From NCBI RefSeq assembly GCF_011045215.1, contig NZ_CP049202.1: a stretch of DNA of 64,000 bases; one strand, 5' to 3'. Below, piece after piece: positions 6,001 to 9,000 of this stretch (position 1 is its first letter; each line of letters begins with the position of its first letter). A program made the position numbers. This stretch comes from Escherichia coli. GTDB taxonomy: Bacteria > Pseudomonadota > Gammaproteobacteria > Enterobacterales > Enterobacteriaceae.

Positions 6001-9000
6001 TCTGCTGCCTGACCGCTTCCGCGGCTATCCGGCTGTTTTCGCGACATGCCAGCATGACACTGTGCCCGGCACGCTGCATTGCAGCCATCTGAGCCAGCGC
6101 CTGCAACTCCTGACCACCAATATTGGGAGAGGATTCGGTATAAAGAATTTTCATCACCACCTCTCAGTCATCATTCAGCCGGGGCCCCTTATGAAGGGCC
6201 AGAAGCGATGAAAAAAACGGAGTGGTGTAATAAAAGAGACGGCGCTTCAGCCAGCCGGAATGTTCACGCTCCTTTGTACTGATACGCCCGATACGCCGGG
6301 GACCCGCCACCGGTGAATTCATCCGCCGCTCAGTGGTGTAGAGGTGGGTGAATCCCAGTTTCTCCGCCACCCTGATATAGTCCGGATTGTAATACCCCTC
6401 CGGCCAGCATAAATGACGACTGCATGAACCGGTCATTTGCCTCATTCGCGCCTGTCCGAGAAGAATATCGGACTCAAGAAAGACGGACGGCTCACGGACG
6501 TTATCCAGCAGATCCCAGCGACGGTGGGTATGTGTGTGCAGATGAAACTCGACCAGCCCGCTCCGGCTCATTTCCCTGACCTCAGACCAGCGCAGCATGA
6601 CATCATCAGCCCGCCCCTGTGCAATCAGGGTCTCGCATTCCCGGTGAGAAAACATATGACGCCCCCCGCTTTCTTCATGTTGCCGGGCGGGACCATCACC
6701 GATAAGCCCCGTGACAAGAAAGATATGAGCCCGGAGACCAAATGCCTGTAACACCGGAAAGGCATAAAACCAGTTATCCAGGTAGCCGTCATCAAAGGTC
6801 AGCATGACGCTTTTGCGTGGCAGTTTCCCGCCACAATAAAAGAATTCCATTTCAGCTGCCGAAACAGTTTTCCAGCCATTTTCAGCCAGCCACTGCATCT
6901 GCTCACGGAAAGTCCGGAGTGAAAGCGTCACCAGCCCTGGATTATTACTGATATGGTGATACATTAATACAGGTAAGTAATGTGCATAAAGCATTTTATG
7001 ATATAACTTAATAAAATAAGTGATTTTTAACCATCTAAAACAAATATTTTATTTATTGAAATGATTTTGCTACACGCTGTCTTGTCTTTTTATGCAAACA
7101 CCCGGCATTAAAAGTTATTTTTTCGGGAATGCTGAATGCACCTCGCATATATAGCCTTCCTAAAATAGGAGTAAAAACTTCATTTTAAAAATGAAGAGAT
7201 TTTAACTATGTCTCCAAGAGAAGGTAGTTTATCTCTTGAAACAAGAAAGGAGTCACTCACCACTGGCATGTAATACTCAAAAAAATACTCCCCCTCTTTC
7301 TGATTGTGTTTCTCTATTATTTCAATATCACCCCCATTCAATCTGTTTAATCCATAAAAACCAAGTACATTCATATATATATGGTTTATAAAGTGTATAT
7401 ATTGCTGTTTTGTTCCTGTGAATTTAAAACCAGCATAAAGACCTTTTTTTAAAGTTAAAAATGAATTATTGTCTCGAGTCTTTTCCTTCCAAACCTTACT
7501 CTCTATAATGAAATCCTCACTTCGTTTTTGCCCTTGATAAACCTCATTTGAGATAATCAGAAAGGGGAGGGAATGGGAAAGTAACTTTTCAATTCTATCC
7601 CACCTTTTGGTGGCGCAATTAATAGTATAAGGTATCATTCCTTTATAAACATACAAATCTGCGAAAATCTTTTTCATTTCACAATCGAAGTAATAAAAAT
7701 CAGGACTCTCAAACTCAGGATTAACCGTCAGAGGACCACTGATGTTATGAAACACCCACACTTTATTTTCCCTGTACTGTTTTGGTGTATATCCTGTATG
7801 CTTCTTAAATTCTCTTGTAAAAGTTTGTTGTGAGTCATAACACAATGTTGTAGATATAACTGACAACGGCAGGTTGGTCAATCGTAGAAGAACAGCGCTA
7901 CGGCTAACTCTGCGTAGTCTGATGTATTTACCCACAGGCATACCAACAAATCGTTTAAATAATAATTGTAAATTACGTCTACTATACCCAGAACGGGTAA
8001 CAAGGCTATCTATATCTATATTATAGATATCTAAATTATCTTCAATATATTGAAGAATCTCTTTTATTGTAAGAAGTCTTATCATATCTTGACCTTATAC
8101 ATCACCGGGAAGCATACGCCAGAAAGCAATTAAGCATGTTTGTGCTTTTTATTTATTGTTTTTTTGTGCACTCAACACTTTATTCTCTATATAAACCCAT
8201 GTTAAAAATGTTAAATTATATTTTGCCATAAACAATGAAGTATTTAACCCCAATAAACAAACCACTATTTACACATGATTAATCATGCAAATGGATACCA
8301 ATTTATTGAGGCTGTTACCGTGGTTAATTAACGTAATATTATTCGGTTAATTATTATTAACAGTAATGTCATATAAATATAAAATTACCATTGATAACCA
8401 ACCCCCACAGAAGCACCAAAGTCATTCTGGGTATTCCCGCCAGCATGTAATTTCGTTATCCAGTGTCCATTTTGTGATATATGAGAAACACCTACAGCAA
8501 TTGCCGATTCGCCACCATAGGTACCTGCAGATACTCCGACCAGACTTGAATCGGGCTGATAGGCCTGTGGAATTCCTGATAAAGCCATCGATGTTGCGAT
8601 ACCTGCAGTCAGTTTTGTTTTCATATCCCCCATCTTTTTATCAAGAGAATCCACCTTTCTGTCGGTATACTGTTTTAAACTGGAGAAACTTTCATTAAGC
8701 TGTCCTACAGTTACAGCATCAGATCGGTTAACTCCCGGAGCAACATTGGTTATTCTTCGCTGATTCAGTGAAGAGCCAACTGACACTGTGTTATCCTCAC
8801 TTGCTACAGAATTACTCCCGAGGGCCACGCTATTTTTTGATGAAACAGTACTTTTGTTCCCAATACCAATGCTGTTTTCTCCGGTTACATTCACATCAGC
8901 ACCAACTGCAATGGCATTATCTTTTTCTGCTCTGGCGTTACCTCCTAAAGCGATTGCATTTTTACCGGTGGCTTTAGGTTTCATTGTTTTTTCTGAGTTT

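Follow-up and report, generated by a model that had tools for sequence, protein, structure and literature searches.

Rob-like AraC regulators of three clades beside surface-structure loci on an Escherichia coli plasmid

What do three regulators of the AraC family control when each sits beside a different surface-structure locus on one plasmid? The question is raised by a 64,000-nucleotide stretch of Escherichia coli DNA (contig NZ_CP049202.1, assembly GCF_011045215.1; hereafter the window), a mosaic segment of an IncF-type Escherichia plasmid in which insertion sequence (IS) elements lie between most functional blocks. The original prediction held that three paralogous regulators with an N-terminal helix-turn-helix (HTH) flank, in turn, a shf-capU-virK cluster, a trimeric autotransporter gene and a PapB-like/fimbrial region, and that they form a family of dedicated adhesin and envelope regulators analogous to Caf1R of Yersinia pestis. 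We found the three open reading frames (ORFs), here named R1, R2 and R3, on the minus strand beside these neighbours, and we consider it likely that they are Rob-like activators of three old clades whose probable targets are the local surface loci.

1-454, minus: R1, HTH domain plus linker, the first 151 residues of a 279-amino-acid Rob-like regulator cut by the window edge (translation, family profile)
7180-8085, minus: R2, a 301-amino-acid Rob-like regulator of the Caf1R clade (Pfam, structure model, identity to Caf1R)
59396-60241, minus: R3, a 281-amino-acid Rob-like regulator of a PapB-partnered clade (Pfam HTH_18, structure model, profile comparison)

Domain architecture of R1, R2 and R3

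A search of all six frames of the whole window with a family hidden Markov model (HMM) returned exactly R1, R2 and R3 (E values of 2e-104, 6e-91 and 2e-56, with 2e-56 for R1) and no further Rob-like gene. Another ORF (48952-49797), suspected as a fourth member on account of its R3-like length of 281 amino acids, was rejected as a secreted fimbrial-type protein that the HMM did not match. The HTH is N-terminal in all three regulators, as had been predicted: Pfam HTH_18 covers residues 29-106 of R2 (E = 3e-17) and 30-104 of R3 (E = 1e-16), and residues 12-116 of R1 align with the SoxS, MarA and RobA profiles. For each gene the ORF finder reports the longest frame that opens behind a preceding stop; the N-termini can therefore reach no further upstream, and no correction of start codons could put the HTH at the C-terminus.

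We next considered the C-terminal halves. In R2, Pfam identified a GyrI-like domain at residues 206-275 (E = 2.7e-6) and Cass2 (E = 4e-5); for the C-terminal half of R3, Pfam gave no match. In end-to-end alignments the RobA_TF profile spans residues 7-275 of R2 and 9-278 of R3, and Rob is the best solved relative of R2 by sequence (E = 2e-24). The AlphaFold (AF2) model of R2 (predicted local distance difference test score (pLDDT) 89.9; predicted template modelling score (pTM) 0.87) matched Rob in Foldseek with E = 2.5e-19 and a template modelling (TM) score of 0.74-0.78, and also matched SbmC. The R3 model (AF2; pLDDT 85.5, pTM 0.81) matched Rob over its full length (E = 4.6e-13, TM 0.67-0.70), and its C-terminal part also matched SbmC/GyrI, the C-terminal domain of BmrR, CTR107 and Cass2.

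By BLASTP, R1 aligns full length with both R2 and R3, and R2 aligns with R3 only over the HTH; the C-terminal parts were therefore compared alone, as clade profiles. Profile-profile alignment (hhalign) gave probabilities of 99.8% for R1 and R2 (E = 5e-30), 94.7% for R1 and R3 (E = 6e-8) and 93.4% for R3 and R2 (E = 3e-7), against 0.2-1.8% for reversed-sequence controls. This was the comparison named beforehand as able to refute the proposal, and it found the C-terminal domain to be shared. The C-terminal half of R1 lies outside the window, and its domain assignment rests on the C-terminal profile of its clade; the gene is complete, with 279 amino acids, in pCeylon31IncF (L001:4723-5562), a bovine E. 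coli plasmid with 99.1% identity to window 1-9250.

R1, R2 and R3 are thus AraC/XylS regulators of the known Rob-like architecture (HTH_18 followed by a GyrI-like domain). As the original prediction stated, this is the reverse of the domain order in Rns, AggR and VirF, which have a C-terminal HTH and an unrelated N-terminal domain. Those proteins are also AraC-family activators of adhesin loci on virulence plasmids, a functional analogy only; Rns matches R2 weakly and over the HTH alone (E = 5e-4 to 4e-3).

Relationships to Rob and Caf1R

On sequence comparison, R1, R2 and R3 are members of three old clades and are paralogues at the level of the family only. They share 29% (R1-R2), 23% (R1-R3) and 24% (R2-R3) identity, and their identity to Rob is 28%, 28% and 19% for R1, R2 and R3. 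The description of the three as paralogous is therefore accurate for the family, and it does not extend to any closer kinship, given that they are no more similar to each other than to Rob. In a neighbour-joining tree of 21 sequences rooted on Rob, R2 grouped with Caf1R and regulators of E. coli, Yersinia and Providencia (94% bootstrap), R3 with PapB-partnered regulators (100%) and R1 with two other E. coli plasmid regulators (91%), and the deeper nodes of the whole tree had no resolution. A recent local duplication was rejected on the basis of the 23-29% identity and the three separate clades.

Similarity to Caf1R, whose sequence (P0087) we confirmed by its caf1M/caf1A/caf1 neighbours, was found for all three: 38-39% identity over 91% of the length for R2 (E = 1e-51), 31-32% over 97% for R1 and 25-28% over 96% for R3. 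What had been put forward as an analogy is thus homology, and R2 alone falls in the same well-supported clade as Caf1R. Scores against the NCBIfam model NF012228 (RobA_TF) were 110.7 bits for R1, 138.4 for R2 and 79.5 for R3, all far under the curated cut-off of 380 bits, so none of the three is a Rob orthologue. Rob, the right origin-binding protein of E. coli, is the best solved structure by fold for both R2 and R3 (TM 0.67-0.78); it differs in being chromosomal and pleiotropic (mar/sox/rob regulon) and in having no adhesin linkage.

We compared R3 and R2 with AfrR, from the AF/R1 pilus operon of rabbit E. coli RDEC-1, and LdaA, from the lda locus of atypical enteropathogenic E. coli, by their published descriptions. 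The usher of the window is annotated as PefC/AfrB family; lda is K88-like, and R2 is 48% identical to regulators that are divergent from K88-like operons. AfrR works together with AfrS, and R3 is likewise paired with a second small regulator gene.

Neither this architecture nor its link to adhesins defines a new family, as both are already published (PMC6440114, PMC9178005). The published account of Caf1R presents it as an AraC regulator of Rob-like type whose C-terminal domain is GyrI-like, reports its homology to AfrR and LdaA, and proposes that it represents an under-studied class (PMC6440114). AfrR and LdaA were likewise published as Caf1R homologues and as Rob-like regulators of chaperone-usher adhesins (PMC6440114, PMC9178005). 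The cryo-electron microscopy study of Rob named 2,650 proteins of this architecture, AfrR and Caf1R included, Rob-like regulators and identified the C-terminal domain of Rob as a sensor (PMC9178005). As an essential activator, Caf1R binds the caf1M promoter over its -35 element (PMC8470410, PMC9820224); it is of class II, and its operon is thermoregulated (PMC8470410, PMC6440114). It regulates the F1 capsular antigen operon on pMT1/pFra, and shares with R1-R3 both the two-domain architecture and a link to a surface-structure locus on a virulence plasmid. Caf1R and its chaperone-usher operon are divergent, and the repeats that Caf1R binds lie in the intergenic stretch between them (PMC8470410), whereas R2 is co-directional with its neighbours, between the trimeric autotransporter and shf, and equivalent repeats were not identified.

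Gene order around R3

R3 precedes a PapB-family gene and lies about 4.6 kb from a fimbrial operon.

58872-59138, minus: PapB/FocB-family regulator gene, immediately downstream of R3 (annotation in L002; conserved AraC-then-PapB order)
54511-54765, minus: PapB-family gene heading the fimbrial operon (52% identity to the PapB gene linked to R3; a 50-amino-acid fragment in the L002 annotation)
48952-54353, minus: chaperone-usher fimbrial operon (major subunit, PefC/AfrB-family usher, chaperone, minor subunit, 281-amino-acid putative adhesin)

Plasmid B of bovine E. coli C5 (L002) is 99.6% identical to window 57743-61466, and the usher of the window is 100% identical to the L002 gene annotated as PefC/AfrB family. 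The distance from R3 to its PapB partner is 191 bp to the longest ORF, or 257 bp to the annotated start. In all members of the R3 clade that we examined (48-77% identity), the next gene is of the PapB family and follows within about 30 bp. On plasmid L003, a more distant relative (34% identity) likewise has a PapB-family gene some 275 bp downstream of it, and there the pair runs directly into genes for a subunit, a PefC/AfrB usher and a chaperone; the usher and chaperone are 55% and 58% identical to those of the window operon. A link between the R3-PapB pair and the fimbrial operon is thus plausible, although the region has been rearranged. The PapB-family gene that heads the operon has possibly been damaged at its 5' end by the IS element upstream.

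Gene order around R1 and R2

R1 and R2 belong to a single module on the minus strand that runs from 11912 down to 1, in the order autotransporter, R2, shf, capU-like glycosyltransferase, virK, four further genes and R1.

8385-11912, minus: YadA-type trimeric autotransporter adhesin, 1175 amino acids (NCBIfam Ata, EmaA, YadA; YadA family annotation in relatives)
8086-8384, minus: AT-rich intergenic region upstream of R2 (28% GC; sigma-70-like sites at 8377-8350 and 8205-8177, consensus matches only)
6164-6994, minus: Shf-like polysaccharide deacetylase of PgaB/IcaB type (NCBIfam PgaB E = 4e-28, IcaB E = 1e-14)
5057-6160, minus: CapU-like family 4 glycosyltransferase (NCBIfam GT4; annotation)
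4034-4975, minus: VirK/YbjX (DUF535) protein (L001 annotation; 56% identity to the homologue in L009)
3075-4028, minus: 317-amino-acid hypothetical protein (ORF; no NCBIfam match; remnant in L009)
2626-2931, minus: small ORF of 83-101 amino acids, paralogue of 48142-48468 (no Pfam or NCBIfam match)
1388-2533, minus: DUF4056 protein (annotation of the 99% identical L001 gene)
475-1353, minus: 292-amino-acid hypothetical protein conserved in the module (ORF; hypothetical in L001 and L008; no NCBIfam match)

R1 is the last gene of the shf part of the module, after shf-capU-virK, the three hypothetical ORFs and the DUF4056 gene, and R1-type regulators were found beyond other shf clusters. On plasmid L009 the order is a FaeA-like gene, shf (71% identical), the family 4 glycosyltransferase (58%), virK (56%) and a regulator 37% identical to R1. 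On two E. coli chromosomes (L031 and L032) we observed two FaeA genes, shf, the glycosyltransferase, a DUF535 gene, a hypothetical gene, a truncated AraC gene and dsbA, followed by an IS fragment, two small ORFs and a regulator 48% identical to R1. The cluster itself is induced by AggR in enteroaggregative E. coli and regulated by PhoP in Shigella (PMC7781526, PMC7355660); AggR thus acts on the type of cluster that R1 and R2 flank. In a limited literature search, no report turned up that ties either shf clusters or a trimeric autotransporter to a Rob-like regulator.

A PAPS-reductase-like gene with a small downstream gene lies just beyond Rob-like regulators at four loci (L001:2217-4069, L008:21146-22998, L009:8183-10032 and L021:11199-13006). 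The small gene is annotated with a ParB N-terminal domain in L001, L008 and L009, and a PerC-family gene is nearby in L009 and L021.

R2 lies 299 bp downstream of the autotransporter and 185 bp upstream of shf. It is rare, occurring in 1 of 5,426 complete E. coli genomes and on 6 plasmids in PLSDB; the module is kept in six plasmids of E. coli and Escherichia fergusonii, in which the autotransporter is often truncated by IS elements. When the window was compared with an E. fergusonii plasmid (L008), R2 showed a synonymous divergence (dS) of 0.24 and a ratio of nonsynonymous to synonymous divergence (dN/dS) of 0.09, whereas dS was about 0.02 for shf, capU and virK. The low dN/dS indicates that R2 is under purifying selection. 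The diverged block takes in the 3' end of the autotransporter, R2 and the 5' end of shf (window about 6900-8680, L008:11300-13200) and is 74-97% identical between the two plasmids, with flanking genes at 98-100%, which looks like the replacement of an allele by recombination centred on R2. Since both alleles occur in the same order at this dS, the order autotransporter-R2-shf is older than the rest of the shared sequence.

Within the autotransporter gene, positions 9653-10937 hold 2.7 copies of a 471-bp (157-amino-acid) repeat at 99% identity, which suggests that the stalk expanded recently. A distant homologue on E. coli plasmid pW24-1 (L030:3124-8764) encodes a 1435-amino-acid YadA-like protein together with an OmpA-family gene, beside ehxCABD, and has a PapB-family gene directly upstream, suggesting that fimbrial-type regulators are also attached to non-fimbrial adhesins.

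Neighbourhoods of the wider family

To place these associations, we examined the neighbourhoods of other Rob-like regulators, at loci that were chosen for sequence diversity and not for context, with no matched control and on plasmids that are rich in adhesin genes. Four regulators were divergent from chaperone-usher operons, among them Caf1R (caf1M-A-1) and neighbours of K88-like and other operons; one was divergent from PapB genes heading a chaperone-usher operon, another from a single PapB gene that has a SPATE (serine protease) autotransporter nearby, and one followed a K88-like operon. Two were near TibC/AIDA-type autotransporters, and one stood at the head of a locus with LuxR, type 1 secretion and Ig-like adhesin genes. 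TibB and TibD were considered as the identity of the Rob-like genes beside TibC-type loci, and the literature assigns no function to either. Relatives of R2 in particular are mostly divergent from chaperone-usher fimbrial operons, and the two regulators divergent from PapB genes are also R2-clade relatives. Transporter-type genes were few: an EamA transporter at three loci (L012, L016 and L033) and ABC-type ATPase, outer-membrane efflux (OEP)-like or HlyD-type genes at two (L015 and L005). Adhesin genes dominated, and no recognised drug-efflux operon was found beside a regulator in the examined neighbourhoods.

One Salmonella locus (L019:7001-8792) carries two tandem Rob-like genes beside a gene for an OmpR-type regulator; genes for an SdiA-regulated-domain protein and for DsbA lie a few kb from them. 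We take this arrangement to be reminiscent of the srg region of Salmonella virulence plasmids.

Predicted DNA contacts

The sequence blocks given in the original prediction (LGFDSQQTF, YDSQQTF and YSSSQNF) are present and align with helix 6 of Rob (DSQQTFTRAF), its second recognition helix. Aligned to Rob, residues S84, Q86, R90 and T99 of this helix are kept in R1, R2 and R3, and K94 is K or R. In the first recognition helix, Y33 is kept, Q39 is kept in R1 and R2, and W36 is replaced by R or K in all three; R40 is retained in R1 and is L in R2 and T in R3. Taken together, the two helices would fit DNA binding of altered specificity; the changes in the first suggest a different half-site, and the sites are therefore probably not classical mar/rob boxes.

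Weighing local control against the alternatives

Several observations weigh against local control of the neighbouring surface loci. R2 is co-directional with and downstream of the autotransporter, rather than divergent as is typical of its clade. The more distant autotransporter homologues (46% identity on a Hafnia plasmid and 35% on an E. coli plasmid; L029 and L030) have no Rob-like ORF beside them by six-frame HMM search, so the link to the autotransporter is not a trait of the family and is seen only in this module. A ParE toxin-antitoxin pair, IS110 and IS2 separate the R3-PapB pair from the fimbrial operon, and on C5 plasmid B, across an ISL3 element, these blocks are oriented differently relative to each other. 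Several members of the family stand as orphans amid IS elements or lie in unclear contexts, and proximity within a few kb is weak evidence by itself on plasmids so dense in adhesin genes. No binding site came to light, and matches to the marbox/robbox consensus AYNGCACNNWNNRYYAAAY with up to 3 mismatches in nine upstream regions were as frequent as expected from shuffled sequence, a result that may be due to the different half-site of the first helix. Finally, a scan of 1-12700 for promoters and terminators defined no operon boundaries, with no terminator that delimits an operon; it did return a few promoter-like sites, which are consensus matches only, upstream of the autotransporter and of R2.

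One alternative is that IS-driven rearrangement has stranded R2 and R3, and perhaps R1 as well: they would be leftovers from the regulatory regions of fimbrial loci, with no regulatory link to their present neighbours. It would account for the nearest relatives of R2 (44-49% identity), almost all of which flank chaperone-usher operons and not autotransporters, for the orphan copies, for the autotransporter homologues that lack such a regulator and for the position of R3, which is cut off by IS2, IS110 and the ParE pair and has an ISL3 remnant upstream. We nevertheless regard it as unlikely. Selection on R2 is strongly purifying, and the gene order around it survives in two alleles at a dS of 0.24; R1-type regulators recur downstream of shf clusters despite divergence to 37-48% identity; and the R3-PapB pair is intact and conserved. 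Even a stranded regulator might still act in trans on the fimbrial operon, at a distance of about 4.6 kb.

A second alternative places the main targets elsewhere, at unlinked chromosomal genes for motility, other fimbriae or envelope stress, with the local order incidental. Cross-talk by fimbrial regulators such as PapB is well documented, a possible trans role has been raised for Caf1R (PMC9820224) and the presence of three such regulators on one replicon suggests a network. We consider predominantly trans action very unlikely, as Caf1R, the one adhesin-linked member that has been studied well, controls the operon next to it (PMC8470410) and the conserved neighbours specific to each clade favour local targets.

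Least credible of all is the idea that R1-R3 are plasmid-borne equivalents of Rob, MarA and SoxS that sense xenobiotics and switch on efflux and stress genes rather than adhesins: Rob is indeed their closest solved structure and best NCBIfam model, and GyrI-like domains often bind drugs (BmrR, CTR107 and SAV2435 are among the fold matches), yet the RobA scores (138, 80 and 111 bits for R2, R3 and R1, against 380), the 19-28% identity to Rob, the changed base-contacting residues (W36 in all three, R40 in R2 and R3), the absence of marbox enrichment in the nine upstream regions and the scarcity of transporter-type genes nearby, none of them in a recognised drug-efflux operon, all speak against it.

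Proposed regulation and its significance

We therefore favour R1-R3 as activators of local surface loci. The prediction that they are dedicated adhesin and envelope regulators is supported in so far as relatives lie beside surface loci in most loci examined; for the targets themselves, gene order is the evidence from which we infer them. A local role is a reasonable inference; the case is strongest where R3 is paired with PapB and where the R1 clade accompanies shf, and it is weakest for the link of R2 to the autotransporter. By comparison with Rob and Caf1R, each regulator would activate transcription by recruiting RNA polymerase from an asymmetric site, about 20 bp long, that lies at or close to the -35 element, and the GyrI-like domain would gate activity in response to a small molecule or temperature. 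Judging by conserved gene order, the probable target of R3 together with its PapB partner is a PefC/AfrB-type chaperone-usher fimbrial operon, and that of R1 is the shf-capU-virK cluster at whose end it lies. For R2, the probable target is the upstream autotransporter, the downstream shf cluster or both.

More tentatively, R2 and R1 might bracket and jointly control the autotransporter and shf-capU-virK as one island, with the GyrI-like domains coupling expression to a cue from the host, such as bile, fatty acids or temperature, and R1-type regulators serving as a dedicated shf switch in strains without AggR. This joint control is possible but doubtful; under it, Rob-like regulators, known for chaperone-usher adhesins or stress regulons, would have been recruited to a different type of island.

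Adhesin-linked Rob-like regulators are numerous on plasmids of the Enterobacterales and have barely been studied, with Caf1R the sole well-characterised example. Here, three Rob-like clades lie side by side on one replicon, and two of the associations, a clade terminating shf-capU-virK clusters and a member beside a trimeric autotransporter, were not found in the literature that we searched. If local control holds, a wider range of surface structures would be under Rob-like control, and these regulators would be candidates for switching adhesins and envelope modification in the host on livestock-associated plasmids of E. coli and E. fergusonii; the understanding of the mechanism of the family would be unchanged.

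Other features of the window

The small ORFs at 2626-2931 and 48142-48468 (both minus; 101 and 108 amino acids) are 79% identical, and the second lies just 3' of the fimbrial operon. Neither has a match in Pfam or NCBIfam. Their positions would suit a small regulator, an idea for which no support was found. The narrower proposal that the ORF at 2626-2931 is of PapI/FaeA/PefI type was unsupported, and BLAST gave no match between it and the FaeA-like gene of L009.

A fourth AraC gene had been predicted to carry the ordinary C-terminal HTH, and it does.

20949-21698, minus: AraC gene, YdeO/GadX-like (HTH at residues about 125-245 of 249)

This gene is intact and divergent from a YfdX-family gene (22216-22848, plus). 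It lies within window 10906-24751, a segment that shares 99.9% identity with plasmid A of bovine E. coli C5; on that plasmid the same AraC gene is annotated as two fragments. At 17356-20174, fragments of a group II intron reverse transcriptase/maturase extend over several ORFs beside remnants of IS3-family elements.

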